Positions 890 through 39,750 of a stretch of 59,222 bases of DNA are shown piece by piece. Under the pieces are notes generated by a model. It saw only the letters and a program-made list of their open reading frames with translations, ran no database searches and had not been told where the DNA came from. The stretch spans positions 1 through 59,222 of IMG/VR virus record IMGVR_UViG_3300043411_000192; one strand, written 5' to 3'. The DNA is from a virus. Its lineage: Duplodnaviria; Caudoviricetes. The first letter of the stretch is position 1; each line of letters begins with the position of its first letter. Position numbers and translations under genes: made by a program.

Positions 890-2703
890 GTCAATCGCAA
901 CTCCAATATGCCTGGGGTCCTGCATGTACCGGTTCAAGAGCAACAGTTTCTCTACACGGTAGAGGAAAGGTTACAGTTAGAACTTCTATAGTCGAAGCGA
1001 CTAAGGCTCTTAACTCTTGCTTGGTGAGATGGAACTACCAGACACGTTATGCTGATACTGGTGCGTATGTATGCCTGGCTGGAGAAACCGAAATATTAAC
1101 ACGGCAAGGGCTTAGAAAGATTGAAGACCTTGTTGGACAAGAAATTGAAGTATTAACTCGACGCTCTAAAGATGGCCACGGAAAAGGTGGCCCTGGAACT
1201 TGGGTGAAAACTCGTGTTGAATCATATGGAGATAATCCACTAAGGAAAATAACTCTTTTGTCTTCCGGTATTGAGAAGATTATATATGCAACATCTCACC
1301 ATAGATGGTATACTAAAGGTGATACAACAGATCCTAAAGTTGCTGAATTTGAATGCATTACAGATGACCTTATGCCAGGATTTAAGCTATCTTCGCTAAG
1401 ACCTCAAAGTATTGCTTCAAGAACAAATCCTTCTCCCGTTGGCATTGCTGCTGGTTTAGTTTTTGGTGATGGTACCTTAGATAACCAACAGGCCAGGATA
1501 CAACTTTTTGGTAGTAAAAATATTAAGTTCTTAAAGTATTTTTCTACCGAACAAACTGTAGATTACTACAACGATGATGAAAAATATTCAGAAGAATATT
1601 GTATTGTTAGAGGTCTTCCTAGGAGTTGGAAGACAAAGGGGCCAGATATTGAGGATGGTCCAGCTTATTTATATGGCTGGCTTGCTGGCTATTTTGCCGC
1701 TGATGGCAGAGTAACTAAAGAAGGTGCTGTTGAATTAAACTCATATAAAGAAGAAGATCTACAATTAGCTAGAGACATCGCTCTACGTTGTGGTATCACC
1801 ACTAGACCAATAACTAAGACGGAGAAAACAGTAACTCCACCTGGATCTGGTAAAGAATATGAAGTTACTCAATATAATCTTAATTTCCATAAAAAATATC
1901 TAGATGAATCTTTCTTTTTAGTTGATGAGCATAGAACCAGATTTATAGATTCGACTTCAGATCGTGAACCAAATAGATGGAAGGTTGTCTCTGTCGAAGA
2001 AACGGATCGCCTTGAAGAAGTTTATTGTGTTGATGTTCCCGAGACTGGATGTTTCACCTTGGCGGATGATATTCTAACTGGCAATTGCCGTCAAAAAGTT
2101 ACTGACACTGGTTGGTCTAACCATTCCTATGGAACTGCTATGGATCTTAACTGGCAGTTGAACCCTTATGGCGGTTCTCGCCACAATATCCCAACTGATC
2201 TAGCTGCGGCTATTTGTCGTATTAGAACAAATAATGGCAAGCAAGTTTGGAATTGGGGCGGATTCTGGTCTGGAACCCGTGACTGGATGCATTTCGAAGT
2301 GGTGTGCTCTCCAAGAGACATTGCTACTGGTATTAATTGGTCAACTGTAGCTGGTAACGTAGTTGTACCACCGACTCCTGTAGATCCAGTTGCATTACGC
2401 AAATGGGTTGCTGGTGATCTTTATAACCGTATTCAGACTGTCCCCGTTATGTGGCTGAATAACGCACCACATCCTCTTTATGTTGTAACTCTTCGTGAAG
2501 CTTTGAACCTTGTTCTTAACGAGAAATTACCTGTAGACGGGATTTACGATGCGGATATGGATTGGCAAGTACAGCGTTTCCAGCACAATGTAGAGTCGTT
2601 CTTGGGTGGCAATCCCATTCCTGAAAACCGTGGTACATTTGCTGATGCTACAAAGATGTATCTCGCCAAGGCTCTTGCCAACATCAGAGATGGTAAAGCA
2701 TGA
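883..2703 (+). CDS. Endolysin, M15-family Zn peptidase with C-terminal peptidoglycan-binding-like domain; contains an intein
   Basis: After intein removal: GAYV-CR...SNHSYGTAMDLN...WGG.W...DWMHFE (SxHxxGxAxD and DxxHFE motifs). C-terminal LPVDGIYD...VQRFQ resembles PG_binding_1. Confidence 0.85.
   Translation: MLSQSQLQYAWGPACTGSRATVSLHGRGKVTVRTSIVEATKALNSCLVRWNYQTRYADTGAYVCLAGETEILTRQGLRKIEDLVGQEIEVLTRRSKDGHGKGGPGTWVKTRVESYGDNPLRKITLLSSGIEKIIYATSHHRWYTKGDTTDPKVAEFECITDDLMPGFKLSSLRPQSIASRTNPSPVGIAAGLVFGDGTLDNQQARIQLFGSKNIKFLKYFSTEQTVDYYNDDEKYSEEYCIVRGLPRSWKTKGPDIEDGPAYLYGWLAGYFAADGRVTKEGAVELNSYKEEDLQLARDIALRCGITTRPITKTEKTVTPPGSGKEYEVTQYNLNFHKKYLDESFFLVDEHRTRFIDSTSDREPNRWKVVSVEETDRLEEVYCVDVPETGCFTLADDILTGNCRQKVTDTGWSNHSYGTAMDLNWQLNPYGGSRHNIPTDLAAAICRIRTNNGKQVWNWGGFWSGTRDWMHFEVVCSPRDIATGINWSTVAGNVVVPPTPVDPVALRKWVAGDLYNRIQTVPVMWLNNAPHPLYVVTLREALNLVLNEKLPVDGIYDADMDWQVQRFQHNVESFLGGNPIPENRGTFADATKMYLAKALANIRDGKA
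1072..2085 (+). mobile_element. Intein (338 aa) with LAGLIDADG homing endonuclease, in the endolysin
   Basis: Starts CLAGETEILT; block B ATSHHRW; motifs AAGLVFGDG and WLAGYFAADG; ends VYCVDV...DILTGN/C. Confidence 0.92.
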
Positions 2704-3095
2704 ACTGGCTAGATAGATTAAATTTAGTTTGTGACACCGCTAGATTCATTATGGATCTAGATGTGATAGATGTTTCTTTTGAATCTGGTCATTCTCTAGA
2801 GTTATACGTTGCCGTTTCTCAGAGAGACAGAGCACAGGGTCTATCTAACCTCAGTTCCTTAGATGTTGACGGTATGATCTTCTATTACCCAACTCCAACA
2901 TATGTTCCTTTTGGGATGAGAAACATGGAAATGGATCTTGATATAGGATGGTTCGATGCTAAAGGTAAAATGATTGGACACGGATCTTACGATAGGAATC
3001 ATAAGCATCCTATTGTCAGCCCACGACCTTTCAGCTATGTCATTGAAACGCCCAAAGGAACTCTCCCAATTTCAGATCTGAGCCTCAATGGCTAA
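2700..3095 (+). CDS. DUF192-family protein
   Basis: Motifs ELYVA...RAQGL...GMIF...MRNM..DLDI.WFD..G...YVIE. Confidence 0.75.
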   Translation: MNWLDRLNLVCDTARFIMDLDVIDVSFESGHSLELYVAVSQRDRAQGLSNLSSLDVDGMIFYYPTPTYVPFGMRNMEMDLDIGWFDAKGKMIGHGSYDRNHKHPIVSPRPFSYVIETPKGTLPISDLSLNG

Positions 3096-3787: not shown

Positions 3788-5671
3788 TTATCCGTACATT
3801 TTTTCTAGCATTTCTAATGATATGAACTGTGGACTTTCACAAGATCCATTGTCAACATCATGTAGAACTATTATTCCTCTCCAATATCCTGTACCCTGTG
3901 GACCCATGTATCCTTCTTCGTGTTGATAGAAAGAACCAGCAGCGATTCCGATCTGTTGCTTACCACCGATGTATCTTGTAGCAAACTTTAATCCTTGCTG
4001 GTGTCCCATCACAAAAGATCTACCAATTATGTTTAGGCGGCCATCTAGTTGCCCACCATAAGACTTGGAAGTATTAGGATTATAGAAATAGTGGCAATTA
4101 TGTGAAGCATATCCGTCAGCTATAAATGTTTCAGTTGAAGTTGCTAGTTGTATAACTTCCTGTTCGCCTTCATAAGCAACATCTATAACTTTATCTGTTG
4201 GATAGCTATCACCAGATTGGACCCTTCCTAAACTATCAAATTTAGATTGAAGTTTTTTAATTAATCTATGAGTTCCTATTGATCCCATAAGTTTTAATTT
4301 ATCTCCAATTGATCCTAATATATAAACTTTCCCACAAGATTCCTCTGAATCGTCGGAAGGCCAATGAATATTATATTCATAGCCTAGTTTTTCTAGGATT
4401 AAAAGACTTTTTTCTAATACGATGTTATCGTTTTGGGCAAATCCCAATTGTAGACCTCCTTGTCCTTGATTGGATTTTGAGACATGTCCCTCTCCATCAA
4501 ATATACCAGCTAGGTAACCAGCTTCTTTGGTATCTAATTCATCCCATTCTGGAAATGGTCTACATATTGCAGAACTATTAACTTTAAGATCTTTAGTTGC
4601 TATCCAATCATACTGAGTTGTATAATATTTTCTAGCCAACCAACGATGATCTGCTGTAGATCTAAATATTTTACCACTTTCTAAAGTAATTCTATAAACA
4701 GGGGCTTTAATAGGATCAACAGCTAAAACAATACTTTCTCTATATTTCCTATGGTTATTGCCTAGTTTTTTATATTCATCAAAAGCTAAGAGTTTATCTC
4801 CTATTTTAACTTCACCAAGAGGAATATATTTTAAATCAGCATTAAGGACTCTATGATCTGGAGTTAGGCAATAACTTATACCATCTAAATCAACTGGTTC
4901 CAAAAAGTCATGGCGATGCCAGCCAGGAGTTAGCATATGATCCGTGCTTAATAGTCCCTGTAATTGGATATCAGAGTCAACGGTTTTATTCACACGGTTC
5001 TCATGGTTACCAATGATAAAGTGCTTACCCCAAGGCTTATCAGCTATTCTCGAATCTAGAAGTTCAAACGCTTCATTGCCAGAATCAATATCTGCAATGT
5101 ATCTACGACCCTCCATAGTGCCCTTACCTCTGTCATATGAGGATAAAGAACCCATGTTCCAGTGGTCGCCTAAGTGGATAAGTTTAACATTTTCAGCATG
5201 GATATGATCAGCCATGTACTGAGAAGCCCAGCCTAAGTGCTCTGTGGGCCTCCCAGGCTCTACCTGAGTGTCTGGAATAATGATATGGGTAGCTATACCA
5301 GAATTGTCTTTGCGAAGCTTCTGCGGCTTTCTAGACGCCTTAGGGAGCGATCTGATGTCGTCTTCGTCTTCTAGAATAGAATTAGGAGTGACTGAGATGG
5401 TAAATCCAGTTTTACTGACACTGATTCTATTTACCTTACCCAGAGCTTCCGCCTGCTCTATAGCTTCTTCGATGTCAGTAGACACTCTCTCAACTTTCTT
5501 TTTCTCATTCCAGTTTCTCTGACCATACTTAGCAAGAGCTTTACCGGAAATTGGTGGTAGGTTGTTATCCTCAATATACTGCAAGATACCTTTTTGTCGT
5601 AGCCCTGACTTCCAAAGATCTTCAAGTAGGTCGACATATTCGTAACTTGATATAGTACCTTGCTTGCTCAA
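3788..5671 (-). CDS. Calcineurin-like metallophosphoesterase with N-terminal extension; contains an intein
   Basis: Motifs IPDTQ, HLGDHWN, GNHE, (C)HYF and GHQQ; TTG start with AAGGAG RBS. Confidence 0.85.
   Translation of the reverse strand: MSKQGTISSYEYVDLLEDLWKSGLRQKGILQYIEDNNLPPISGKALAKYGQRNWNEKKKVERVSTDIEEAIEQAEALGKVNRISVSKTGFTISVTPNSILEDEDDIRSLPKASRKPQKLRKDNSGIATHIIIPDTQVEPGRPTEHLGWASQYMADHIHAENVKLIHLGDHWNMGSLSSYDRGKGTMEGRRYIADIDSGNEAFELLDSRIADKPWGKHFIIGNHENRVNKTVDSDIQLQGLLSTDHMLTPGWHRHDFLEPVDLDGISYCLTPDHRVLNADLKYIPLGEVKIGDKLLAFDEYKKLGNNHRKYRESIVLAVDPIKAPVYRITLESGKIFRSTADHRWLARKYYTTQYDWIATKDLKVNSSAICRPFPEWDELDTKEAGYLAGIFDGEGHVSKSNQGQGGLQLGFAQNDNIVLEKSLLILEKLGYEYNIHWPSDDSEESCGKVYILGSIGDKLKLMGSIGTHRLIKKLQSKFDSLGRVQSGDSYPTDKVIDVAYEGEQEVIQLATSTETFIADGYASHNCHYFYNPNTSKSYGGQLDGRLNIIGRSFVMGHQQGLKFATRYIGGKQQIGIAAGSFYQHEEGYMGPQGTGYWRGIIVLHDVDNGSCESPQFISLEMLEKMYG
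4097..4870 (-). mobile_element. Intein (258 aa) in the metallophosphoesterase
   Basis: Starts CLTPDHRVL; block B STADHRW; one clear LAGLIDADG motif (YLAGIFDGEG); ends FIADGYASHN/C. Confidence 0.9.
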
Positions 5672-5756
5672 TGTTTACTCCTTAGGTTTGAACGGTTTCC
5701 TCGTTATTACACGACTGTCGTTATTATAATCAACGACTGTATTGGTTATACCGACC

Positions 5757-5785
5757 ATTTTAACACACCTTGAGAGATTTGTCAA
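5757..5785 (-). promoter_or_regulatory. Host sigma70-type promoter (leftward, metallophosphoesterase)
   Basis: Minus strand reads TTGACA-17 nt-TAAAAT with extended TG. Confidence 0.75.
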
Positions 5786-5786
5786 T

Positions 5787-5815
5787 TTGACAAATGAAAT
5801 GATGTGTGTTATACT
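5787..5815 (+). promoter_or_regulatory. Host sigma70-type promoter (rightward, into the non-coding region)
   Basis: TTGACA-17 nt-TATACT with extended TG. Confidence 0.8.
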
Positions 5816-5820
5816 CCGTG

Positions 5821-6240
5821 GAAATTCGAATACAACTTACGAGTTCTGGGTTCGCAGCCTAGATTCTGACGAAGGATTCATCGGGCATCTTCGGATGTAG
5901 GGGTAGCTTCCTCCTTAAGTACCAGAAAGCACACCAGACATAATCAACTGTATGTAAAGGCAGACCTGGGTTACACGTTCGAAGTGTTGATTATGATACG
6001 TTCCGTCCTGACAGCTACGGCTGTATTTGACTAGGCTCCGTTCAGCTTCCATTACACTGGAAGGAATGGTTTTTAGTTGATTCCCTTGCACTTCTTGTCT
6101 CATCCTGAATTGCGGGGGGATTTAACTATTCACCGGTTTGCTAACCATTATCTAAAAGGAATAGGGGAAACAACCTCTCCTGCTTAAACTTCCTGAAAAC
6201 AATTCGGAATAAAATCCTCACTCTCAGCGTTAAAGCACAA
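5821..6240 (+). ncRNA. Candidate structured non-coding RNA of unknown class (~400 nt)
   Basis: Has its own consensus promoter and no credible ORF. Contains many helices, including UUCG and UACG tetraloop hairpins and long-range stems. Confidence 0.55.
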
Positions 6241-6242
6241 AC

Positions 6243-6271
6243 TTGACAGACCTGATAATCTATGGTATAAT
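6243..6271 (+). promoter_or_regulatory. Host sigma70-type promoter for the sigma factor / RNR operon
   Basis: Perfect TTGACA-17 nt-TATAAT with extended TG. Confidence 0.88.
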
Positions 6272-6306
6272 GATACCTATATCAAGTCGAAAGGAGTAGA
6301 GATACT

Positions 6307-7089
6307 TTGATTCTGAAAAACAAGAGGAAATTCTCTAAGCAAGAGAAGGAAGATCTTTGGGATTCTTATTACGAAAATCCTGATGATACTAAAGTTTTCA
6401 ATGAACTATTAGAAGCATACCTTCCGCTAGTAGAGATTATAGCCTCTAAAACTAAATCCAAACTTCCTGTTCAAATTGAGATAGGAGATCTTGTCAATGA
6501 CGGATTCTTTGGATTAGTTGATGCTATCCAAAAGTATGATGAATCAACAGGAAATAAGTTTGAAACTTATGCCTCTAACCGAATTCGTGGAGAGATTAAC
6601 GATAGGTTACGAGACTATGACTGGGTATCTCGCTATTCTCGTTTAAAGTTTAAACAGGTTTCTCAAACCGAAGCTCTTCTAGAAGAAGAGATGCAAGCTA
6701 GACCATCTTCTCAGGATATCGCTGATAGATTAGGATGGGACTTGGATGAGGTACTGAAGACTCAATCTTCGTATCTATCATCATTCTCAATAAATATTGA
6801 TGAGTATATCTCAGATTCAACCCACGAATCTTTTTCGCTGAAAGAAATGATTCCAGATTCTTCAGCTCCTGATGTTGGGTTCTCTCTAGAGTTATCAGAG
6901 ATTTCATCAGTGCTTGAAAAAAGTTTGTTTTCTCTCTCTGAACAGCAATCAATTATCGTATATCTCTATATTTACGAGGAAATGAAGCTAAATGAAATTG
7001 CTACACTCCTAGATATTAACATCAAACAAGTAAGTAAAATATACGATCAGGCATTAAAGCAAATGGAAAGTATGTTACACGTCATCTGA
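6307..7089 (+). CDS. Phage RNA polymerase sigma factor, FliA/WhiG (sigma-28) family
   Basis: Region 2 GLVDAIQKYD...KFETYASNRIRGEINDRLRDYDWVSR; region 3 QDIADRLGW; region 4 HTH YEEMKLNEIATLL. Confidence 0.9.
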   Translation: MILKNKRKFSKQEKEDLWDSYYENPDDTKVFNELLEAYLPLVEIIASKTKSKLPVQIEIGDLVNDGFFGLVDAIQKYDESTGNKFETYASNRIRGEINDRLRDYDWVSRYSRLKFKQVSQTEALLEEEMQARPSSQDIADRLGWDLDEVLKTQSSYLSSFSINIDEYISDSTHESFSLKEMIPDSSAPDVGFSLELSEISSVLEKSLFSLSEQQSIIVYLYIYEEMKLNEIATLLDINIKQVSKIYDQALKQMESMLHVI

Positions 7090-7135: not shown

Positions 7136-9967
7136 TTGAAAATTAAGAAAAAAGGCACAAATCCAGAATACATAAATGAATTCTCTACAGCACTATTGGA
7201 TGGTTTCTACCTACAAGATGGGGAAACTTTTGATGATGCTATTGCTAGAGCGGCTGAGGCTTTCTGTTTCGGTGACTATGAACTCGCTCAGCGTGTTTAT
7301 GAAGCTGCTTGGAATGGCTGGTTCATGTTTGCTAGTCCCATTTTGAGTAATGCACCGAAGGGTTCTTGGTCTATTGATATGACTGATGCCTGGAAAGAAG
7401 ATGGGTTACTAACTAATGGCTTTACTGGTGAACATACCAAAGCTATGCCTATTAGCTGTTTCAGCATGTATATTCCTGACACTATTGATGGTCAGATGGA
7501 TGCTAACAAGGAACTAGCTGCACTTTCTGTAGCCGGTGGTGGTGTAGGTCTGCATAATGGCATTCGTGCCACTTCAGATAAAGCCCCTGGTCCTATTCCT
7601 TATATGAAAACAATGGATGGTCTAATTGGATACTATCAGCAAAGTAAAAACCGTCGTGGAGCGTGTGCATACTACATGGACATCTCGCACCCGGATATCA
7701 TCGAACATATTCGATTCAGAGTACCGTCCGGTGGAGACTCTGCGCGTAAATCTGATAACAGGAAGCAATTCCACTCAGCAGTTAATGTTACAGACGAGTT
7801 TATACAGGCCGTGCTCGCAGACGAAATGTTCAACCTTGTTGACCCGCACAGCAATGAAGTACGAGAGGTAATTCGTGCTCGTGATATCTGGGAAGAGCTA
7901 CTAGAGGTTCGTGCGCTAACAGGTGAGCCGTATATCTTCAAGATTGATACAGCCAACCGTGCACTTCCGCAAACCCAAAAAGACAAAGGTCTAAAGATCA
8001 ATGGTTCTAATATCTGTGTAACTCCAGAAACACCTATCCTTACTGACAAGGGTCATCTACCAATTGGGGCGCTTGATGGATTAACAGTGAATGTATGGAA
8101 TGGTGAAGAATTTACCGAAACAACTGTACATAAAACTGGTGATCTAGAACATGTTATAAGAGTTAATACATCAAAGGGTCACTTTATTGATTGCACGCCT
8201 ATGCATAGCTTTTATGTTGTGCGTTCATATGGCAAGAATGCAGAGCTTGTTAAGGCCCATGAACTTCAGCCAGGTGACAAATTAGAAAAATGTGATATGC
8301 CAGTTATTGAGGGAGAAAGAACTCTATTTAGAGCATATACTAACGGTTTCTATACTGGTGATGGTTGTGAAGTTAAGGGTAGATCGCGTATTTATCTCTA
8401 TGACCAGAAGCAAGCTCTAGCTGAGGATATTGAAGGTGTAGAGTCGTGGACTGTGCAGGAAGATTTTAATCGCATGTATGGATACGCAGAAGGTCTACAG
8501 GAAAAATACTTTATTCCAGATGCTACATATACTATTGCTAGTCGTGTTAAATGGCTTGCTGGCCTTATGGATTCTGATGGAACATTACTCAAAACGGGTA
8601 AGTCTCAATCAGAAACCGTACAGATAGGTAGCGCAAATCTTCCATTTCTTCAAGATGTCCAACTTATGCTCCAGACGCTAGGAGTAGATGCTAATATTTC
8701 TCTAATGCGTGAACGTGGATCTTGGTTGTTGCCAGCCAACGATTGGACTGGAGAACTCAAGGAATTTGATTGTGAAGAAGTTAATCGTCTTCTAATAAGC
8801 TCGTATGATCTTTACAGATTGTCTAAATTAGGTCTAAGCTGTAATCGTTTGCAAATTAGCGGGCGTAAGCCACAGCGTGAAGCTAAGGTTTTCAATGCTA
8901 TTGTTTCAGTTGAAGATTATAGTAGAGTTTCAGATGTTTATTGCTTCACAGAATCAGGTCGCAACAAGGGTATCTTTGGTGGCATATTAACGGGGCAGTG
9001 CATTGAAATTACTCTTCCTACTAGTGAAGACCGTACTTTTGTATGCTGCCTATCCTCTCTTAATCTTGAAAAGTATGATGAGTGGGCAGACACAACACTA
9101 GTTGCTGATCTAGTACGCTACCTAGATAACGTAATTCAGTTCTTCATAGAGAAGGCACCTGACTCCCTAGAGAAGGCGAAAATTTCTGCCGCTAAGGAAC
9201 GTGCTATTGGTATTGGAACAATGGGCTGGCACCACTACCTACAGAGCAAAGGTATTCCCTTCGAGGGTGGCGGCTTTGGATCTGGTATTCAGGAGACTCA
9301 CAAGATCTTCTCACATATCAAGGCACAAGCTGTTGCTGAGTCCGAGAAGCTAGCCATAGAGCGTGGAGAACCGGAAGACATGGTTGGCTCAGGACGTCGT
9401 AATAGTCATCTATTTGCTATCGCTCCTAACTCTAACAACTCAGTTATTCTTGGAACTTCACCTAGTATCGAACCAGTCTCTGGTAATACTTATTCTCAGT
9501 CAACTAGAGCAGGTACATTTACCGTGAAGAACCCTTATCTAGACAAGCTTCTATATTCTATTGCGCTAGGTCTAGATGGAATTTTCGAACCTGATGAATG
9601 GGTAACCGAACAGTGGAGAGATATCATTGCTCACGATGGGTCAGTACAACACCTGGAATATCTTTCAATTGAAGAAAAAGAAGTCTTCAAGACTGCCTTT
9701 GAGATTGATCAGCACTGGCTGATAGAGCAAGCAGATGCTCGTCAGCAGTATGTATGCCAGTCACAGAGTTTGAATCTTTTCTTCCCATCAGGCGTTTCTA
9801 GAACATATTATAATTCAGTACACCTTAAGGCTCTTACTTCAGAATATGTGAAGAGTCTATATTATTCAAGAATGGAGCGAGGCATTAATGCTGACGTGGT
9901 TAAAGAAATTGAAAGAAAAGTTATCGAAGACTGGGCAGGGGATGACTGTGTTGCCTGCTCCGGCTGA
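7136..9967 (+). CDS. nrdA: Ribonucleoside-diphosphate reductase class I, alpha subunit; contains an intein
   Basis: Motifs FASPILSN, ISCF, GGGVG, GEPY, SNI/CIEI, IAPNSNNS, SLYY and C-terminal CVACSG. Confidence 0.95.
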   Translation: MKIKKKGTNPEYINEFSTALLDGFYLQDGETFDDAIARAAEAFCFGDYELAQRVYEAAWNGWFMFASPILSNAPKGSWSIDMTDAWKEDGLLTNGFTGEHTKAMPISCFSMYIPDTIDGQMDANKELAALSVAGGGVGLHNGIRATSDKAPGPIPYMKTMDGLIGYYQQSKNRRGACAYYMDISHPDIIEHIRFRVPSGGDSARKSDNRKQFHSAVNVTDEFIQAVLADEMFNLVDPHSNEVREVIRARDIWEELLEVRALTGEPYIFKIDTANRALPQTQKDKGLKINGSNICVTPETPILTDKGHLPIGALDGLTVNVWNGEEFTETTVHKTGDLEHVIRVNTSKGHFIDCTPMHSFYVVRSYGKNAELVKAHELQPGDKLEKCDMPVIEGERTLFRAYTNGFYTGDGCEVKGRSRIYLYDQKQALAEDIEGVESWTVQEDFNRMYGYAEGLQEKYFIPDATYTIASRVKWLAGLMDSDGTLLKTGKSQSETVQIGSANLPFLQDVQLMLQTLGVDANISLMRERGSWLLPANDWTGELKEFDCEEVNRLLISSYDLYRLSKLGLSCNRLQISGRKPQREAKVFNAIVSVEDYSRVSDVYCFTESGRNKGIFGGILTGQCIEITLPTSEDRTFVCCLSSLNLEKYDEWADTTLVADLVRYLDNVIQFFIEKAPDSLEKAKISAAKERAIGIGTMGWHHYLQSKGIPFEGGGFGSGIQETHKIFSHIKAQAVAESEKLAIERGEPEDMVGSGRRNSHLFAIAPNSNNSVILGTSPSIEPVSGNTYSQSTRAGTFTVKNPYLDKLLYSIALGLDGIFEPDEWVTEQWRDIIAHDGSVQHLEYLSIEEKEVFKTAFEIDQHWLIEQADARQQYVCQSQSLNLFFPSGVSRTYYNSVHLKALTSEYVKSLYYSRMERGINADVVKEIERKVIEDWAGDDCVACSG
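8015..8998 (+). mobile_element. Intein (328 aa) with LAGLIDADG domain and C-terminal Gln, in nrdA
   Basis: Starts CVTPETPILT; block B CTPMHSF; motifs NGFYTGDG and WLAGLMDSDG; ends VYCFTE...GILTGQ/C. Confidence 0.92.
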
Positions 9968-19126: not shown

Positions 19127-19641
19127 CAAAGAAAGATAAGATACAGGCCAAGATTGATAAAGCTAAGGAAGCGAATCCTCATTTGCAGAATATAAACTGG
19201 GGAGAGATTCTTCAAAGAGAGCCTGATGTTTTAAACAACATTCTCGGTGATGTTGCTAGATCAGACACTAAACGAAGATCTAAAATAGATAGAAAAACTG
19301 GCACTCAAAAGCTACAGGCAATGTCTGGCACTGATCATTCAGAGAGAGAATTCAGATATGCATTCGCTTCGATATGTGGAAAAGAATCTTTTAGGAAGAC
19401 GGCGACCAAGTTAAATATCTCTGCTGCACATGTATATAATCTTAAAGAGGGCAAGGCTCAGCCTACGCTTGAACTCATGGAGAAGATAGCTGAAGTCTAT
19501 AATAGAAGACCTTCTTACTTCTTGGAATATAGAGTGGGAATGGTTTTGATGTCTATAGAGTCTTACCTTACAAGAAATCCAGAGACTGCTACTGTATGGT
19601 ATTCTAAAGTTCAATCCAATTCGGGGATTATTATCAAATGA
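19123..19641 (+). CDS. XRE-type HTH DNA-binding protein
   Basis: SFRKTATKLNISAAHVYNLKEGKAQPTLELMEKIAEVY. Confidence 0.75.
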   Translation: MTKKDKIQAKIDKAKEANPHLQNINWGEILQREPDVLNNILGDVARSDTKRRSKIDRKTGTQKLQAMSGTDHSEREFRYAFASICGKESFRKTATKLNISAAHVYNLKEGKAQPTLELMEKIAEVYNRRPSYFLEYRVGMVLMSIESYLTRNPETATVWYSKVQSNSGIIIK

Positions 19642-22352
19642 TTTATTCAGACTTATCCGAAGAAGAACTATGTCTATTCGTGCTGTTCACAGATGAGACT
19701 GGACTAGATCAAGCAGAGTTCTGTATGGTCGATGAGCGTAACAAGCAGACAGGTCTTTTCAGAGCTTGGCCTGTTCAGCAGTTCTGGTGGAGAAAGAAAT
19801 CAAAGAAGATTATTAGTCAAGGTAGTCGTTCTATTGGTAAGAGCCTCTCAGCTAAACTGAGAGCTTTTGCTTTCCCATTTGTGCATCCCGGTGGAGAGTT
19901 GGTTATCACCGCTCCTGAGGGTCTGCATTTGGATGCTTTGACTGACAATATCGAATCGTTGTACCTCAGAAATAGAATTGCTGAATCCATGCTTGCTAAG
20001 GATCAGCGAGGTAGAATTAAGCATAGACCTTTCCATATCAACTTCGCAAACGGTGGCCGTATTATGGCTCGTCTGCCTAAGTTTGACGGTTCGGGAGTGA
20101 GAGGGACGCATCCAGACTGGCTAATTCAAGATGAGTCTTGTTTTCCGGGTAATACTTTAGTTCTTACTTATCAAGGTTATAAGAAAATTAAAGATGTTGA
20201 AGTTGGTGATTTTGTCTTAACTCATAAAGGTAACTGGAAGAAAGTTCTTAATGTCATAGATAATGGTCTACGAGAAGTAATAGAGTTAAAAGGTCAAGGA
20301 CATTATGGGTTAAAAGTGACTTCTAATCATAGATTCTGGGCGCAGGAAGTTTTGGATTATAATGATAGAAAAAATAAGTGGGGTATTAAAAAGAAATCTG
20401 ATTTTAAGTGGATTCGTGCCGAACACATGGTTGACAATTTATGGTCCACTCCTACTGTAATTCCATATTTTGATATTCCAAAAAGTATTCAAGCTTCTAA
20501 TATCTCAACGAGCTATGAAATAGACATACTTTCAGATGATTTTCTTTGGTGTCTTGGTTTGTATATTGCCGAGGGATCGACCTCTAGTTCTTATGGGTCG
20601 GGCGGTAAGCTTAATAAGACCACATGGTCTGTTCATTCCAAAGAAGTTGAATTTGTAACTTCTAAGCTAACAGCTGCTGGTATCCACTGGTTTGTTCAAC
20701 CTGTTCAATCTAGCGAGAATTGTAAAAATATTGTTGTCACACATATTGATTTAGCAAGATTTATGAAAGAAAATTGTGGAACTAGTTGTTATGAAAAAGT
20801 AATTCCTCTTTGGGTTCATGCCCTAACCCCACATCAACGTCAAATGGTATATGATGGTTTAATTTATGGCGATGGCTGTGACATTAAGGATGATAGATAT
20901 AAAGAAGGTAATCAAGCTTTATCTACAACATCTAAGAAGTTGGCTTTCGATTTTCAGTTATTAGCTAGATCAATTGGAAGAACAGCATCATTAACATATT
21001 ATTCTGGTAATAAGGTTGGAATAATAAGAGGTAGAGAATTTATATCTAGTCCTTCGTATGATATAAGATCAAGATTACAAGGTCAAGGGATTAAAATAGA
21101 TGATAAAGTTCTTCATAAGGTTAAGTCTTCTAGAGATGCTGGCATTGAACGTGTTTATGATTTAACCGTTGAAGATGATCATTCATTTATAGCAGAGGGA
21201 ATTATAGTTCATAATTCATTCTATCCTGAGCCAGCTTGGAAAGAGTTGATTGAAACTCTAATCATTAATGACGATCCTGAGCACGATAACTCTAGATGGT
21301 TCTCCCACGGAGTAACCGTAGGTCCCGGTAATACTTTTGATGATAAGATTAGCGGTAAGGATAGTACATGGGAAGTGGTTCCTCTCCCTGCTATGTATAG
21401 ACCTAATTGGAGCGATAAGGAACGGCAGGATAAAATTATTGAATATGGTGGTGAGGATTCTCCTGACTATCGTAGAAATGTTAAGGGTCTATCGGCTAAC
21501 GCTGGTACACCTCTTCTTGTAATGCATAGGCTTATGGAAGCAGTTGATTCTGATGAAATGTCTGCTTACAACCTAGAAGAATATTCTATCTGTAATATCA
21601 ACGATGCTCAGGTCCGAGAAGTTGGAAGTATATTGGACTTGTTCGATCCGCCAATCTCCCATACTAAGTATGGCAAGGTATGGATTGGAATGGATTATGG
21701 TCTAACCACATCTAACTCCTGTTTAGTAATATTTGCAGAGACTAAAGAGAAGGGTGACGACCACGGACGATTAAGATTACTGTCAAAGATAACATTAACT
21801 CGTATCCCGACTGAGGATCAGGTTGCTCTTATTAAACATATCATGGAGATATATAGACCTACAGCTTTCGTATTTGATGCTCACGGTATCGGACAGCCAG
21901 CCTACGACTGGTTACAGAAAGAAGTAAGAGAAGACGAAAATGTTGCCTGGATGCTTGACAGAATCAAGGGATACTCATTCTCTAAGAAGATGATAGTCCA
22001 GTTCGATCCTAACATAGAAATCTCTGAAGACGATCCAGATGGCTGGAAGGCTGCGGCTATAGAGCGCCTAGGATCTGAGGCTTCTATTGATTCACTCAGA
22101 TTAATGGTTGATAGTCACAGACTGAGACTGCCATATGACAAGGATCTTATCGGAGAACTACAGGCTGTCCAAAGAAAAGAGCCAGTTCGTTTCGATGAGT
22201 ATGGTAAACCAAAGAGAAAACAGGGTCAGCACACGCTCGACGCTATTAGATTTGCCCTTCTTGGATACAATCAGCATGTAATCGAGGAGATTGTGAAATC
22301 TTATGAGGATAGTTGGTCACCTCCTGAGATGATCATAATGGATTACATTTAG
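19638..22352 (+). CDS. terL: Terminase large subunit; contains an intein
   Basis: Walker A GSRSIGKS, Walker B LIQDE, nuclease IGMDYG, DAHGIG and HTLDAIRF. Confidence 0.9.
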   Translation: MIYSDLSEEELCLFVLFTDETGLDQAEFCMVDERNKQTGLFRAWPVQQFWWRKKSKKIISQGSRSIGKSLSAKLRAFAFPFVHPGGELVITAPEGLHLDALTDNIESLYLRNRIAESMLAKDQRGRIKHRPFHINFANGGRIMARLPKFDGSGVRGTHPDWLIQDESCFPGNTLVLTYQGYKKIKDVEVGDFVLTHKGNWKKVLNVIDNGLREVIELKGQGHYGLKVTSNHRFWAQEVLDYNDRKNKWGIKKKSDFKWIRAEHMVDNLWSTPTVIPYFDIPKSIQASNISTSYEIDILSDDFLWCLGLYIAEGSTSSSYGSGGKLNKTTWSVHSKEVEFVTSKLTAAGIHWFVQPVQSSENCKNIVVTHIDLARFMKENCGTSCYEKVIPLWVHALTPHQRQMVYDGLIYGDGCDIKDDRYKEGNQALSTTSKKLAFDFQLLARSIGRTASLTYYSGNKVGIIRGREFISSPSYDIRSRLQGQGIKIDDKVLHKVKSSRDAGIERVYDLTVEDDHSFIAEGIIVHNSFYPEPAWKELIETLIINDDPEHDNSRWFSHGVTVGPGNTFDDKISGKDSTWEVVPLPAMYRPNWSDKERQDKIIEYGGEDSPDYRRNVKGLSANAGTPLLVMHRLMEAVDSDEMSAYNLEEYSICNINDAQVREVGSILDLFDPPISHTKYGKVWIGMDYGLTTSNSCLVIFAETKEKGDDHGRLRLLSKITLTRIPTEDQVALIKHIMEIYRPTAFVFDAHGIGQPAYDWLQKEVREDENVAWMLDRIKGYSFSKKMIVQFDPNIEISEDDPDGWKAAAIERLGSEASIDSLRLMVDSHRLRLPYDKDLIGELQAVQRKEPVRFDEYGKPKRKQGQHTLDAIRFALLGYNQHVIEEIVKSYEDSWSPPEMIIMDYI
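20139..21215 (+). mobile_element. Intein (359 aa) with LAGLIDADG domain, in TerL
   Basis: Starts CFPGNTLVLT; block B VTSNHRF; motifs LGLYIAEG and DGLIYGDG; ends VYDLTVEDDHSFIAEGIIVHN/S. Confidence 0.93.
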
Positions 22353-33032: not shown

Positions 33033-36000
33033 GTGGCAACTAGATATTGGGTTGGATCGGGAACGTGGAACGCAGCGAGTACCGCTAATTGGTCCGCTAC
33101 TTCGACTACTGGGCCAACTGGAGCTTCTGTTCCGACTGCGGCTGACGACGTTGTATTTGATGCTTCTTCTGGTAATTGTGATTTAGCTCCCGGTGGTAGA
33201 CTCTGCCGCAGCTTGGACGCAAGCACCTACACGGGGGCGATGGTCTTTTCTTCTGGTGGTACGGCAACGCTGTCTGTGGGTGACAGCGTGCCCGGTCCCG
33301 GCAATGTTGCCTTTCGGTTGTCGGCGGCAATGACGTTCACCACGGGCGGCGTGTCGTTTCCTTCCACGATCACGTTTGCGTCCACGTCGACTACGGCGCA
33401 GACGATCACCACGAACGGTAAGACACTCCCCAACGTCACGTTCAACGGTGCCGGGGGGAAGTGGCAGCTTCAGGACGCCCTGACAAGCTCGGGCATGATC
33501 ACGACCACGGCGGGCGGTTTCTTCGGCAACGGGCAGACCATCACCGCAGCATCGTTCAACGGCGGGACGACAGGTGTTCGCACGGTCGACATCACGAACT
33601 GCTCGATCACCCTCACAGTGGGCGGCGGCACACCGTGGAACATGGGCTTCACCCCTTCCAACCTGACGTTCGTGAGCACCGGGTCGACCATCACGTTCAC
33701 CGGGTCGCTGGGTCTGGAGTTCCGTGGCGGTGCCCTGACGTACAACAACTTCGTCAACACGATGACCACCGGCACCACCCCGATCCAGATGTCGGCGGTT
33801 AATACGTTCAACAACCTGACGTTCACCGGGGCGGCGGGTACGGCCTGTCAGGTCATGCTTGCTGCGAACCAGATTGTCGCCGGCACCCTCACGATCACCG
33901 GCAACTCGGCGACGAACCGGGTCCTCTGCTACTCCGAGACGCTCGGTACACCTCGGGTCATCACTGCTGCCGCCACTGCTCTCACCGATGTTGATTTTAT
34001 GGATATCGCTATAGTTGGTCCTACTGGATCTACTATTACATCAGATAGCTTTAACAGAAGTAATGGCGCACTACATGGATCTACGTCTGATGCCGCTGCC
34101 GGTGGGAGTGGCTTAACTTGGTCTACTGGAAGTAATTTCAATATTGCTTCTAACGCATCTACGGCTAATAGTAGTAGTTCCTATATCACCATACCTGTTG
34201 CTACTTCTAATATGGAAGTTTCAGCGACCGTGCCAACATTGGTCACGAGTGGACATGCTGGTGTGGCGGCTAGAATATCTAGCATAACTAATTTCGTATT
34301 TTATGGTGTATCTAATGCCTCAACCCAATCCGTGCTAATGTATCAGATTGGATCAACGTCTAGTTCTGTTTCCTGTGGTCTAGTCGCTGCCGGGTCTACA
34401 ATCTCTTTAAGAGTAATAGATCAAATAGCTGTTGCTTTAGTTAATGGAACAGTCGTGGGAACGCTTGCTATTCCCCCGGCTTCTTCGTTCACTTCACCAA
34501 ATAATGCTGGTCTTCAGCAGATGAGTACGGGCACTATTGATGACTTTGCAGTGAAGAATCTCGCTTCAGTAACTGGCACCCGGCTCGGTGACTGCCTCGG
34601 CAACTCGGGCATCACCTTCACCACAGCTTCTGGTACAGCTAGAGATGGTGGTGGCGCTGGAGTAAAGAGATATGCTGTAGCTGCTGGTAACTGGTCCTCG
34701 ACAGCAACGTGGTCGGAGTCGGACGGCGGCGCGCCGGGAGCGTCGGTTCCTCTCCCGCAGGACGACGTGTACATCAAGCGTTCCTTCTCCAGTGAAACTA
34801 TTACAATAGACATGCCGAGGCTGTGTCGTCTGTTGGATTTCACTGGCTCTACTGGCACACTTCATACCTCACAGCTTGTAACGACTGCAACGATCTTTGG
34901 ATCGTTGGTACTAGCAAATATTCCCGGTAATCTACTAGCTTCTAATATAAGACTTCTCGGAAAGTCGAATACGATTACAACCAATAGTAGAACTTTTATA
35001 AATGCTAATGCAGCCCTTGTTATTGATGGTTCATATACGATGACCGACCAACTCTTCGTTGGTGGAGATTTAAGTTCCATATATGGCAGTCTTAATACGG
35101 GAAGTTATGCTATATCCTGCGGTAGATTTATGTTCTCGTATAGTGGCACTTTAAACCTTGGCTCTAGTAGTATCACTATTACACAAACGGGAGCCGCTAC
35201 TCCAGCGTGGACTGTCAGTTCGCTAGTAAATCTTAGTGCGGCTTCATCAACGATCACATTTGCTTTGGATGCGCCCATTGGTGGCGCCACCTCAAGTGCC
35301 GCAGCTACCCATACATTTGCTGGCGGAGATAAGAGTTACGGCACTCTCACCTACACGGTCGCTGACTCGCCCGGTGCTCTAACAATCACTGGCTCTAACA
35401 CTTTCGGCACAGTCAACATTGGTTCTGGTAGATCACTGAAACTTACTTCTGGTACTACACAGAAGATAGGTACATTAAATCTTAATGGTGTACCTAGAGG
35501 TGGAGTCAGGTTGCCGGGAGTTGGTGGCACATATTTGTCCACACCGGATTCGGCAGCAGTATCAGTTACTGGTGACATCGACATCAGGTGCAGGGTGGCG
35601 TTGACCGACTACACCGCTGCGTCGGAAGGTGCTCTCGTCACCAAGTTCGGCGCAGCAGGCCAACGGTCCTTCCGCTTCTACTTCGATTCGGTGGGACGGT
35701 TGAACTTCAACATGAGCACCGACGGGACCGCCAACACGGGGTTGCAGTGGCAGGCAGGGCCGACGTTCGTTGACGGGACGACCTACTGGGTGAGGACCAC
35801 AAGAACCGCCGCAGGGACGCTCAGGTTCTTCTACGCCGCCGATCAGCCGACGATGCCAACGTCATGGACCGAGGCTGGGTTGTCACAGACCCTTTCTGCT
35901 GGGCAGAACATTTTCGACTCCACCTCGCCGGTCGAGATCGGGTCGATGACTCTCGGCACGGCCTACCTCGCCAATGGCGTGTTCTACCGGGCGCAGATCC

Positions 36001-36344
36001 GCAACAACGTGTTGGACGACGGCTCTGGCATCGTGTTCGACACCGACTTCTCCCCAGCACGATTCTGGCCGTTCTTCCTCGACTCGGCCAACGGCGCAGC
36101 GGTTACTCCGTCGACCACGCTGGCGAACGTCGGGGACGGCAGGGTCGTCATCGAATCCTCCACCGCAGGCACAGGGGCCACTCTTGAAGTTGGTTCTGTT
36201 ACCGGCATGAATTATGTTGACCTGAAGGATGTTGTTATGAATGGTGCCGATACATATATTGAGGCTACTTCCGTAATAAGAAGTAACGTCAAGGGTGTGC
36301 GTCGAGGCCCACAAACCGGCATGTCGATGATGATGGGAGTTTAG
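33033..36344 (+). CDS. Large Thr/Gly/Ser-rich virion appendage protein with a duplicated module and LamG/concanavalin-like domain(s)
   Basis: 1103 aa; two RY..G.W.....WS....G..GASVP...DDV units; [16 protein letters not shown] LamG-like module. Confidence 0.7.
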
Positions 36345-36345
36345 G

Positions 36346-37656
36346 ATGACAACGTATATAGTGACACAAGGAATTCAAGGTCCAGAGGGTGCTCAGGGGC
36401 CTGCTGGCGCTACTGGTCCTGATTCCACTGTTCCCGGTCCTACCGGCGCTCAGGGGGCTACTGGTGCGGGCGCTACGGGTCCTCAGGGTCCAACTGGACC
36501 AGAGGGGGCAACTGGCCCACAGGGCGCTTCCGGTGTTGGTGCTCAAGGATTCACCGGCCCGCAGGGAGCTACGGGTGCATCTGGAGAAAATGGTTTAGCC
36601 GGTTCTACTGGCGCTACGGGTCCACAGGGGGCGACTGGTGTGACCGATCACGGGCTGTTGACCGGGCTGTCCGACGACGACCACACCCAGTACGCGAAGA
36701 AGGCATCGAACCTGTCAGACCTCGCCTCGGCCGCGACGGCACGAACCAACCTTGGTTTGGGCACGGCGGCGGTGGCTGCGACCGGGGACTTCGACGCCGC
36801 AGGCACGGCGGCAGGACTGGTTGATGACCTGTCGGGTGTGTCGAACCAGGCGACCGCCCGCGCGAACCTCGGACTCGGTACCGCGGCGACGGCGGCGACT
36901 GGCGACTTTGCTGCTGCGTCGCACACGCACACCGGTACTCAGGTCACGGTCGATGCGTCGGGGTTCAACGGCAACCTCACCACATCGGACGACACGTTGC
37001 AGGAGGTCGCGCAGAAACTCGACGACCTCGCGGTTGGTGGGTCGGAGACGTTGGCTGCGTCGATCATCGACGCCAAAGGCGACCTCATCGTCGGCACAGC
37101 GAACGACACTGCGGGACGCCTGCCTGTGTCCGCGACGAACGGCGCTGTCCTCGTTTCGGATTCCGCTGCGAGCACCGGGTTGAACTGGGCGGTCGACCCG
37201 TTCATCGTCACGCTGCCTGGCGCGAGCCCGACGCTCCTCGCTGCGATCGCCAACTACGCCTTCGCGATGCGGGTGTTCGGTGCCGGGACCATCTCGAAGG
37301 TCGCCCTGCAGATCGGCACGTCGTCGGGCAACATCTGCGTCGGCGTCTACTCGAACACTGGTGTCGGTTACAACGCCACCCCGAACGCCCGCCTCGCCAC
37401 GTCCGGTTCGGTGGCGTGCCCGTCCACCGGCTACCAAGAAGTCGCTCTTGGGTCGTCGGTTGAGGTGCGAACCGGTGACTGGCTTGTCGTCGCGTTCGAC
37501 AACGCCAGCGCCACGTTCTACGGCGTCGCAGCACCAGGGTCAGGGTTGGCGAACAACGGCCTGGTCCGCACCGCGAACTCGTCGTTCCCGCTGCCCACCA
37601 CGTTCACCGCGCTCAGCAGCCATGATCGCTCGGTGCGCCTGTGGGGAATTCCGTGA
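36346..37656 (+). CDS. Collagen-like fibre protein
   Basis: GXY repeats, [23 protein letters not shown] repeats, [10 protein letters not shown] and a C-terminal beta-sandwich. Confidence 0.8.
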
Positions 37657-38672
37657 TCGGACGGGGCCGCCCCGTCCCACCCGCCGACACCGCGGACCTG
37701 TTCGTGTCGCCGTCGGGCACTGGTGACGGATCGACCGAAGCAACCCCCGACAGCCTCTACGACGCGATTACCACGGCGACCACCGGGCAGACGATCGCGA
37801 TGCTGCCCGGTGCGTATGCGGGCGCCGGGTCGTTCGACAAGCAGGTGACGATCCGGCCGCGCACCGGCAACATCGGGTACAGCGTCACGCAGACCACCGG
37901 GCTGTGCTACCCGGCGCGCGGGTCGCTCGGCTCGATCGTGCTCGACGGCGTGAAGATCACGTCGATGGTCGGCACCGCAGGCGGCACCGAATACTGGACG
38001 CTCGCCACCCCATCCGAATACACCTCTGGCTCGAAGATGGGTGTCATCTACTGCCACGGCGCGACCGGCGACGAAACCCAGCCGTGGGCGTCGTGGCCGT
38101 TCGCTCTCGGCAACATCATCCGCTCCGTCATCCAGACAGGGTTTCCGGTGCTGTCGATCCACGGCGGCGGCGACACCTGGGGCAACGCCACGTTCAAGGC
38201 CCGCATGGACGAAGCGGTCGCAGCGTTCCCCGGCCTCGGCGCCAAGGACGCTCCCGTCGCCGTGATGGGCGGGTCGATGGGCGCCCTGTCGCTCAACTGG
38301 GTGAAGGACCACCTGGCCGACACCGCCTGTTTCGTCGGCATCACCCCCGTCACCGACGTGTCCGACATCCACACGAACAACCGTTCGAGTCTCGCCGGGT
38401 CGATCAATACCGCCTACTCCACATGGTCCGAAGCGACCTACGGGGCGACCTACAACCCCAAGACCTACGCAGCCGGGTCGCTCACCGGCCTCGACTACAA
38501 GGCGTGGTACGGGGCATCGGACAGCATCGTCATCACCACCACCGTGACCGACATCGTGACCGCGATCGGTGGCACCGCCTCCGCAGTCTCGGTCACCGGG
38601 GACCACACGTCCGCTCTCGGCAACATCCCCGCCGCCGATGTCGTCGCGTTCCTCGTCGCGAACCAGTCGTAG
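37653..38672 (+). CDS. Alpha/beta-hydrolase (esterase-like) with N-terminal beta-helix-like leader
   Basis: YCHG, nucleophile elbow GGSMG, GASD and GDH; GTGA overlap start; GC-rich codons. Confidence 0.75.
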
Positions 38673-38680
38673 GAGCTCTC

Positions 38681-39190
38681 ATGCCGCCGTTCCTCACCTC
38701 CACCGTCATCCCCGGCGAGATGCTCGCCGGTACCCGCCTCCTGTCAGCGAACACGCTGTACTACATCCCGTTCCCATGCATGAGAACCACAACGTTCGAC
38801 CGCATCCAGTCCTATTGCGGGGCGTCTGGGCACAGCATCCGAATGGGCATCTACGAATCCGGCAGCGACGGGTTGCCGGGCGCGTTGCTGTTGGACGCCG
38901 GGGCTGCGACCGCGCCCGTCGCCTCCACGGCCCTCACCATCACCATTTCGCAGGCGTTGGTCGGCGGCACCCTGTACTGGCTCGGGCTGGTCTCGGACAG
39001 CGCGGCGACGGTCGTGAAGTGTTCGCCGATCGGTTCGCAGGCGTTCGGTCTAGCAAGCGCGATGGGCACCGGCGGCAACCAGGCAGTCATCTCGCAGTCC
39101 CACACGTACGGCGCGTTGCCGTCGAACGCGTCGGGGCTGTCGTACACAAACTCGGGGGATCTGCCAGCGATCGGAGTGAGGGCATCATGA
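38681..39190 (+). CDS. Stand-alone beta-sandwich domain paralogous to the fibre C-termini
   Basis: True start MPPFLTST after AGGAG; the longer track ORF from 37904 is an overlap artefact. IRMGIY...G.PGALL...YWLGL. Confidence 0.7.
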   Translation: MPPFLTSTVIPGEMLAGTRLLSANTLYYIPFPCMRTTTFDRIQSYCGASGHSIRMGIYESGSDGLPGALLLDAGAATAPVASTALTITISQALVGGTLYWLGLVSDSAATVVKCSPIGSQAFGLASAMGTGGNQAVISQSHTYGALPSNASGLSYTNSGDLPAIGVRAS

Positions 39191-39468
39191 GAACGGTCAT
39201 CACCTACGGCGTCGGCGGCTACAACCCTGATTTGCCGAACGGCAACATCGTCGAACAGACGGTCGACAACCTCGACGGCACCGGCACGAGGACCACCTAC
39301 GACGCCGACGGCAACGTCACCAGCGTCGAACAACTCACCGGGCTACCGATCCCCGTGCCACCCGAGCCGACCGCGGAGGAACGACTCGCGACCCTGCTCG
39401 CGGCGTTGACCGACGCGCAGTCGCTCGAAGAGATCCGTGATGCCGCTGCTGCGGCAGGGGGCAACTGA
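39187..39468 (+). CDS. Small fibre-associated protein (paralog of 32223-32612)
   Basis: MRTVITYGVGGYNPDLPNGNIV...DNLDGTGT..YD.DG; ATGA overlap. Confidence 0.7.
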   Translation: MRTVITYGVGGYNPDLPNGNIVEQTVDNLDGTGTRTTYDADGNVTSVEQLTGLPIPVPPEPTAEERLATLLAALTDAQSLEEIRDAAAAAGGN

Positions 39469-39750
39469 TGGCAACCAAGCGTGAACGGCTCGACAGCCTG
39501 ACGGCGAAGATTCGGGGCAATATCGACGTGGACATTCAACATCGAACCTTGGAGCAGTCTTGTTGTGAGGAACTATAAGATCAACAACTTTACTGCTGGC
39601 TGGTCTAGGGGTCAGGTTGTGTTCTCTGGTGGACCCGATTTCAACTGTCAAGTGTTTGATGTTGATTTTACTAATCTTGTTGTAACTGATCCTAGGGGTG
39701 AGACTAACGACTTTAGCATTGCAGCTTGTGCTGATATTATGATAAAATAA
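39468..39750 (+). pseudogene. Frame-disrupted or chimeric ORF at the GC-rich/AT-rich junction
   Basis: The ATG at 39468 (TGATG coupling) stops after about 36 codons, while the +1 frame is open from 39502 to 39750. Confidence 0.4.

Follow-up and report, generated by a model that had tools for sequence, protein, structure and literature searches.

The DNA analysed here (the window) is a linear IMG/VR virus record of 59,222 bases, with an estimated completeness of ~52%, and the locus of interest is a 635-nt gap in its list of open reading frames, lying between the end of a minus-strand gene at 5671 and the start of a sigma factor gene at 6307. The leftward gene (3788-5671, minus strand) was annotated by Pfam/PHROG-type matches as a metallophosphoesterase with an intein, and the rightward gene (6307-7089, plus strand) as a sigma-70 family member with regions 2, 3 and 4. 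An initial annotation of the record had described the region 5821-6240 as the largest non-coding gap of the genome, and this holds if a spurious antisense ORF of 62 aa is left aside: homologous sequences have indels of 23 and 19 nt within this ORF, and alignment together with a frame check found no open frame in the gap that is common to the homologs.

Three promoters were recognised in the gap. That of the leftward gene (5757-5785, minus strand; TTGACA-17-TAAAAT) stands back to back with a plus-strand promoter, P1 (5787-5815; TTGACA-17-TATACT), which matched 11 of 12 positions in a consensus scan and has a TG upstream. The structured stretch had originally been placed just after this promoter, which is indeed a near-consensus sigma-70 sequence, and spacing from P1 predicts an RNA start at about 5821-5823. 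The third, P2 (6243-6271, plus strand; TTGACA-17-TATAAT), precedes the sigma gene and matched at all 12 positions. Of the 11 loci scanned, 10 have promoter P2, matching at 10 to 12 of the 12 positions, whichever element precedes it (locus L195 had none at that cut-off), in agreement with the earlier view that a second promoter at 6243 frees the sigma gene from needing the RNA as a leader. Sites with 11 or 12 of 12 matches number eight in the first 20 kb of the window, the three promoters of the gap among them. The region is also bracketed by inverted repeats (5607-5623 with 6349-6365, 15 of 17 bases; 5645-5655 with 6277-6287, 11 of 11), which connect the beginning of the leftward gene to the region where the sigma gene starts, and one of which encodes EDLW in both proteins. 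By a rough estimate a chance origin of these repeats is unlikely, and they may be recombination or regulatory sites.

Several other features of the window were recorded. LAGLIDADG or intein signatures occur in an M15 peptidase-like gene (883-2703, LAGLIDADG only), in the metallophosphoesterase gene (3788-5671) and in the gene for the ribonucleotide reductase large subunit (7136-9967), and in a terminase-like gene (19638-22352) a segment with matches to reductase and helicase PHROGs has been inserted; these insert regions are not the same in the window and in two related records, L001 and L194. From about 36000 to 39500 the GC content rises to 0.65-0.67 from a level of ~0.40 elsewhere, several phases have open frames, and the adjoining ORFs match collagen-like tail-fibre PHROGs. 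An ORF of 3435 aa (44607-54914) gave no PHROG match at E up to 1e-5.

Related IMG/VR loci were reached through the sigma protein, and further ones through motif scans. Alignments, nhmmer and pair counts defined a conserved core, here called type A, at 5822-6165 on the plus strand. Four copies were found (the window, L194, L002 and L014), in three divergent lineages, with an identity to the window of about 93% for L194 and about 70% each for L002 and L014, and with nhmmer E values of 1e-103 to 1e-120. The order of leftward promoter, P1, RNA, P2 and sigma gene is identical in all four, as are the back-to-back arrangement of the first two promoters and the 11 of 12 matches of P1. L194 was the sole near-identical copy from the genome-contig scan. 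Its contig (G002:C6, 149 kb) was binned in a bacterial MAG, but phage-type genes were seen in the three other regions sampled, and its genes include those for a helicase, endonuclease VII, PhoH, an RNA ligase, a methyltransferase and a glycosyltransferase. The contig is probably a large phage genome that was mis-binned and, given its phage-type genes, the MAG label should not be taken as the host.

Wider searches added little to this family. GenBank phages gave no type-A match in a 'distant' blastn search, scans of IMG/VR with motifs from four type-A blocks returned only L002/L005 and L014, and among 101 stretches from one type-A motif scan nhmmer confirmed no new copy. A metagenome scan with the sigma alignment yielded 434 relatives, of which 80 were kept, with no new type-A copy among them by nhmmer; only L015-L018 were close, the others being sigma factors of ~35% identity. 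No RNA before a phage sigma gene was described in the literature searched, including the accessible parts of PMC10690425 and 10.64898/2026.09.22.753630. The supplements of PMC10690425 are given there as holding more than 10,000 candidate phage RNAs from IMG/VR, and that list could contain type A.

The comparison of these copies revealed a compact, multi-branched fold. In the alignment of the window with L002, invariant blocks of 11-23 nt lie between stems whose two sides co-vary, and RNAalifold, applied to the three lineages, predicted 69-72 pairs, 21-23 of them with compensatory change. Helices were also enumerated as every stack of at least four columns in which all sequences pair. The top two stacks were a 10-bp helix, P5 (5939-48/5986-95, spanning 5939-5995), in which 6 of the 10 pairs changed on both sides, and a 6-bp helix, PK1, formed by UUCGAA at 5825-5830 with 5978-5983, in which four pairs changed on both sides and all four sequences are paired. 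The 3' strand of PK1 lies inside the 37-nt loop of P5, together with the invariant GGCAGACCUGG, so PK1 constitutes a pseudoknot. Its 5' strand begins ~3 nt past the predicted RNA start; from the -10 hexamer it is 10 nt away in the window, 16 nt in L002 and 10 nt in L014. The first bases beyond the predicted start are seen, by comparison of the copies, to pair into the core, making the predicted 5' end part of the fold.

The remaining helices of the 5' half are short hairpins. Hairpin P2 (UCUGGG/CCUAGA, 5845-5863) was recognised by eye, with GCAGAG/CUCUGU in L002 and GCAAGG/CCUUGU in L014; it is misaligned by MAFFT, so that only two of its pairs entered the pair count given below. Hairpin P3 (GCAUC-UUCG-GAUGU, 5885-5898) shows one change from U-A to C-G and a closing G-U in all four copies, and hairpin P4 (AGGGG/CUCCU, 5899-5915), within the most conserved sequence block, shows a swap of G-C to C-G and likewise a G-U in all four. 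Further downstream, hairpin P7 (ACAGC-UACG-GCUGU, 6011-6024) has two pairs changed on both sides. Helix P8 (6029-32/6075-78, spanning 6029-6078), with one compensatory and two one-sided changes in its 4 bp, encloses an invariant UAGGCUCC-UUCAG block and a lineage-variable hairpin (6046-51/6058-63), and crosses helix P10, giving a possible but weakly supported second pseudoknot. P10 (GAAUG 6064-68 with UAUUC 6127-31, spanning 6064-6131) is identical in all four copies and is, because of this invariance, uninformative for covariation. It closes P11, a long G-U-rich hairpin (6079-90/6111-22) that forms in every lineage, with a distal part that differs in sequence and length. L002 and L014 have an additional hairpin between AUAC and GUUCC. 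The last conserved element is a second GAAUA(G) copy (6159-6164), which in all lineages can pair with the same UAUUC as an alternative to P10. Two copies of AA(G/A)GAAU(G/A), at 6064-6069 and 6159-6164, thus flank UAUUC, and either can pair with it; in L002 both GAAU copies carry a G-to-A change together with a C-to-U change in their UAUUC partner. This coordinated change, seen in a single lineage, hints that the two copies could support two alternative conformations.

Most of the helices proposed in the initial annotation were recovered. Those at 5885-89/5894-98 and 6011-15/6020-24 are present and still pair in the homologs, as does the 10-bp helix at 5939-48/5986-95 with its six compensatory pairs, and the alternative CTATTC/GAATAG pairing (6126-31/6159-64) can form in all lineages, in competition with GAAUG/UAUUC. 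The hairpin CTTCCA/TGGAAG (6046-63) occurs in the window and L194 but is replaced by a different hairpin in L014, and the fold of L002 has no comparable one, while of the G-U-rich stem drawn at 6074-90/6111-28 the part 6079-90/6111-22 was retained and the distal part proved variable. The pairing AATGGTT/AACCATT (6065-71/6143-49) was rejected, because by eye it has no counterpart in L014 and because it clashes with the invariant GAAUG/UAUUC.

The 3' limit of the element differs from the original description, in which an RNA of ~400 nt spanned 5821-6240. Its first part stands, as the core at 5822-6165, but 6166-6240 diverges even in the 93%-identical relative. The whole tail (6166-6242, plus strand) has diverged between the window and L194 and is absent or different in L002 and L014, and a hairpin that is plausible in the window tail is broken in L194. 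Since conservation stops at about 6165, the core measures about 345 nt. No conserved terminator or defined 3' end was found among the type-A loci, the only terminator-like site of the gap being inside the RNA (6046-63), and no sequence is conserved in these loci between the end of the RNA and the ribosome-binding site of the sigma gene. Given the lack of a conserved terminator, transcripts from P1 probably continue through P2 into the sigma gene.

Support for the fold came mainly from compensatory change, which the initial annotation had named as a check on its proposal. When 41 curated pairs in 8 helices were read across the four sequences, all 164 cells were paired and 17 pairs had changed on both sides, compared with only 0-5 two-sided changes in slid controls, in which partners were shifted by 1-3 columns; none of 500 shuffles matched the observed values. 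The curated helices had been picked because they pair, which makes the pair count partly circular and a shuffling of columns the fairer test, although this correction extends to no more than the two best helices. Over 200 column shuffles, 4 compensatory pairs in a helix was the maximum, a value reached once, and 6 was never reached. Compensatory changes among the homologs thus exceed both the slid and the shuffled controls, with the covariation drawn from only three independent lineages. As to strand, G-U pairs occupy 19 of the 164 cells by a reading of the pair table, three G-U pairs being invariant, and helices with at least two compensatory pairs number five under plus-strand rules and two under minus-strand rules. 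As had been argued earlier from G-U pairs in the window, both counts place the RNA on the plus strand.

Folding energy gave no such support. It had been put forward as a measure by which the RNA might fail, and it was no better than that of dinucleotide shuffles in any lineage, with z values of -1.35, -1.69, -1.49 and -1.08; for the whole stretch z was -1.35 on the plus strand and -0.46 on the minus strand, and the single-sequence fold of the window misses the 10-bp helix. No run recorded as RNA was found to contain the stretch; four wastewater runs labelled as RNA-Seq, which are probably DNA, gave contigs covering parts of it. One of 411 nt corresponds exactly to 5819-6229 and others cross both borders, but contig ends cannot show transcript ends. 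On comparative sequence grounds, positions 5822-6165 of the plus strand are a conserved, non-coding, structured RNA with a fold under selection, and the first proposal of a promoter-driven structured RNA on this strand is upheld by P1, the covariation and the G-U pairs.

The RNA could not be assigned to a known class. Rfam 15 comprises 4227 models, including tRNA, tmRNA, RNase P, SRP, 6S, riboswitches and group I/II introns, as well as self-cleaving ribozymes, GOLLD, ROOL, HEARO, raiA and OLE, and the whole window gave no match at the gathering score. A permissive search of 5600-6400 (E up to 10) returned only microRNA, snoRNA or plastid-intron models at chance level, the best with 24.3 bits against a gathering score of 90 and the lowest E being 0.32. 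No match at E up to 1 was seen for L001-L004 and L014, and L016-L018 and L194 gave one chance snoRNA match. ARAGORN found no tRNA or tmRNA gene in the window. These results accord with the earlier failure to recognise a tRNA, tmRNA, RNase P, SRP RNA or intron by eye. Type A is a real, previously uncatalogued, pseudoknotted phage RNA, and its family is very small.

Particular candidates were also considered and rejected. A cobalamin riboswitch was considered because of the ribonucleotide reductase genes downstream and because of AGGCAGACCUGG, which presumably resembles a B12 box, but there was no Cobalamin, AdoCbl or AdoCbl-variant match at E up to 10, no conservation is seen in the sequence from the RNA to the next gene, which is served by a promoter of its own. 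The RNA lies between two promoters and inside no gene, and no intron model matched, which speaks against a group I intron. The 6S RNA imitates an open promoter by means of the central bubble in its single long, irregular hairpin of ~180 nt; the consensus fold of type A is multi-branched with a pseudoknot, and there was no Rfam 6S match. An anti-Shine-Dalgarno-like CCUCC (5911-15), a possible mimic of the 16S rRNA 3' end, is unconserved, being GUCC in L002 and L014, as is a T-loop-like UUCGCAG in hairpin P2. A CsrA-type sponge was dismissed since the GGA motifs are missing from L002 and L014, and AAGGCAGA, common to this RNA and 4.5S RNA, found no echo in the SRP model.

Comparison with the closest relatives of the window revealed that the RNA belongs to an exchangeable segment. 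L001 is 99.5% identical to the window in the left flank, up to 5738, and 96.6% identical in the right flank, from 6306, but the 567 nt between them in the window (5739-6305, comprising the three promoters and the RNA) are replaced in L001 by 1012 nt that are unrelated by blastn. The type-A RNA and its promoters have, by this comparison, been exchanged as a unit. The L001 segment (L001:1988-2999) consists of a different non-coding element of about 600-650 nt, type B, and a small ORF of 106 aa (2684-3004) that lies between this element and the sigma gene. The ORF has a CxxC...HH...HxxxH arrangement that appears HNH-like by eye, no Pfam match, and a match to PHROG 8060 (unknown function) only; judged by this motif, it may encode a homing endonuclease that is free-standing and responsible for the swap. 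Over its first 20 kb the window is otherwise collinear with the L001 record, save in the part of the reductase gene with the intein and in a short segment that follows, from which it can be concluded that no gene for a partner protein was swapped with the RNA in that region, apart from the 106-aa ORF.

Type B also occurs, at the identical position, in L003 (about 2400-2990), L004 (about 2330-2985), L018/L196 (in L018 about 1030-1545) and, weakly, L195 (about 320-745). It is conserved and non-coding, with a length of about 330-650 nt, an invariant CTAATGGTTTTTCCC at one end, and ACCCACCG with a GTCATCNGG...CCNGG hairpin at the other. Rfam gave no match for it, and types A and B showed no similarity by nhmmer or blastn on either strand. 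A type-B motif scan of IMG/VR returned 52 stretches with only 5 type-B elements. A second swap was seen between L017 and L018, where flanks of 98.9% and 98.4% identity enclose unrelated middles of 440 and 344 nt (L017:1902-2341 and L018:1054-1397). The filling of L017, type C, is GC-richer, has no relative among the loci compared, and has only a promoter-proximal hairpin in common with type B. In L016 the filling is different again and contains an ORF of 95 aa. A minus-strand promoter with 10-11 of 12 matches stands back to back with P2 in four of the six type-B/C loci (L003, L004, L018 and L017), and no comparable plus-strand promoter precedes the element in these four. This position next to P2 suggests that type-B/C elements are probably transcribed leftwards, an assignment favoured by promoter positions only, as RNAalifold was equally weak on both strands of type B and the column-based helix search used poor alignments. 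Two swaps between near-identical phages mark the locus as a hot spot for promoter-equipped RNA cassettes, and argue against a role tied specifically to the sigma gene.

The explanation favoured here, though held tentatively, is that 5822-6165 of the plus strand specifies a stand-alone, compact pseudoknotted non-coding RNA of ~345 nt, from a small undescribed family, that would act in trans as an accessory. Host RNA polymerase would transcribe it from P1 right after infection, and the RNA would be freed from, or would outlast, read-through transcripts, as its ends are buried in structure. It would then work in trans as a folded particle, binding either a host protein or a phage protein that all of these phages share, and its role would be accessory, serving host take-over or counter-defence and not forming a core step in the expression of sigma. 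An accessory role is likelier than a sigma-linked one because near-identical phages carry unrelated elements, probably in the opposite orientation, because in 10 of the 11 loci scanned the sigma gene has a promoter of its own, and because no expression platform is conserved. The lack of a conserved terminator or 3' end would be just as expected of a leader.

It is possible, if rather less likely, that the RNA is a cis-acting leader of the sigma/ribonucleotide-reductase transcript that starts at P1. Such a leader would act by antitermination via the polymerase, or by protecting the transcript from 5'-end-dependent decay, and P1 transcripts would then behave unlike P2 transcripts. With no conserved terminator between the RNA and the sigma gene, and with the RNA facing that gene in all four type-A loci, a role in cis stays a serious rival. 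The tandem layout of promoter, RNA, promoter and gene is conserved, the 5' end of the RNA is buried in the pseudoknot, and the minus-strand promoter of type-B/C loci aims the element at the leftward gene, a mirror layout that could serve the other operon. A folded RNA just after an early promoter, upstream of an operon and without a terminator of its own, is also what is found in the HK022 put RNAs and the EAR RNA, which are cis-acting processive antitermination RNAs of about 70-120 nt. Type A differs from these in that it has no Rfam match and is followed by no excess of terminators, the terminator-like sites downstream being at chance level (12, compared with 11.6 expected, in 20 kb), and its ~345 nt with several conserved unpaired blocks lie far above the sizes of known antitermination RNAs. 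Against a leader stand also the absence of a conserved expression platform, the unconserved sequence from the end of the RNA to the start of the sigma gene, and the near-identical phages that manage without the RNA.

It is improbable that type A is a selfish or mobile RNA, or the remnant of one, in the sense of a cassette, ribozyme- or intron-like, that a homing endonuclease nearby would spread and that would not benefit the phage. The genome is rich in mobile elements (LAGLIDADG or intein signatures in three genes and an insert in a fourth, the terminase-like gene), the swap boundaries are sharp, and the L001 cassette carries the 106-aa ORF with its HNH-like Cys/His motif seen by eye, but Pfam gave no match for that ORF, and the one PHROG it matches has no assigned function. 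Nor does type A itself resemble such an element: no Rfam intron or ribozyme matched at E up to 10, it interrupts no gene and has no endonuclease gene of its own, and its promoter is its own and of consensus type, while selection has kept its fold in three lineages.

Even less credence is given to a replication element, in which the folded P1 transcript would serve as a primer for DNA synthesis or would open an origin where the promoters diverge, in the manner of ColE1 RNA II and the promoter-dependent origins of T4. Such a function would be in keeping with the strength of the promoter and with a transcript that is structured and lacks a terminator, and the strand switch coincides with a local minimum of cumulative GC skew; however, the skew there simply tracks gene orientation, no iterons were found, DnaA boxes number 15 in the window compared with 14.9 expected, with none inside the gap, and no AT-rich unwinding region follows the RNA (GC 0.37-0.46). 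The unrelated replacements in near-identical phages, in whose replication genes no change was seen within the first 20 kb, are also difficult to reconcile with such a role. That the locus is merely a conserved promoter region with incidental hairpins and no function at the RNA level is very improbable, since compensatory changes, including those of the long-range pseudoknot, go far beyond the controls and invariant blocks of 11-23 bases extend to about 340 nt past the promoter, even though the folding energy is no better than that of shuffles and only three lineages are available.

Returning to type A as a stand-alone RNA, its closest parallels are of two kinds. GOLLD and ROOL, which have Rfam families, are longer than the ~345 nt of type A. 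Type A resembles these 'ornate' phage and prophage RNAs (cryo-EM preprint 10.1101/2024.12.08.627333) in its large intricate fold with conserved unpaired blocks; like them it is phage-encoded, lacks an assigned function, and has beside it no gene for a partner that would account for it. It differs in having no sequence or structure match to them, only four copies, its own consensus promoter and a swap-prone locus. The locus itself recalls the 'moron' or anti-defence hot spots of phages, in which unrelated promoter-bearing inserts occupy one position between conserved genes. There too such inserts distinguish near-identical phages, but they are protein-coding, whereas the cargo of the present locus is mainly long, non-coding and apparently structured RNA. 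A broader proposal, which is unlikely but would follow this likeness, is that the locus may swap unrelated structured RNAs of several hundred bases, each with its own host-type promoter and in either orientation, as anti-defence islands do with proteins; at least types A, B and C would belong to this set, and the RNAs would be early accessory or counter-defence weapons, type A being one of them.

Large structured RNAs with no assigned role offer rare openings into new RNA biochemistry, and in phages they have a rich source that is still under-sampled. Type A offers an experimental handle, with a strong host-type promoter, a predicted 5' end and a pseudoknotted core of ~345 nt, and the relatives that differ almost only in the cassette, natural knock-outs by replacement, are ready controls. 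If the reading of the locus as a site of exchangeable cassettes is true, accessory functions at phage hot spots would be carried by RNA as well as by protein.
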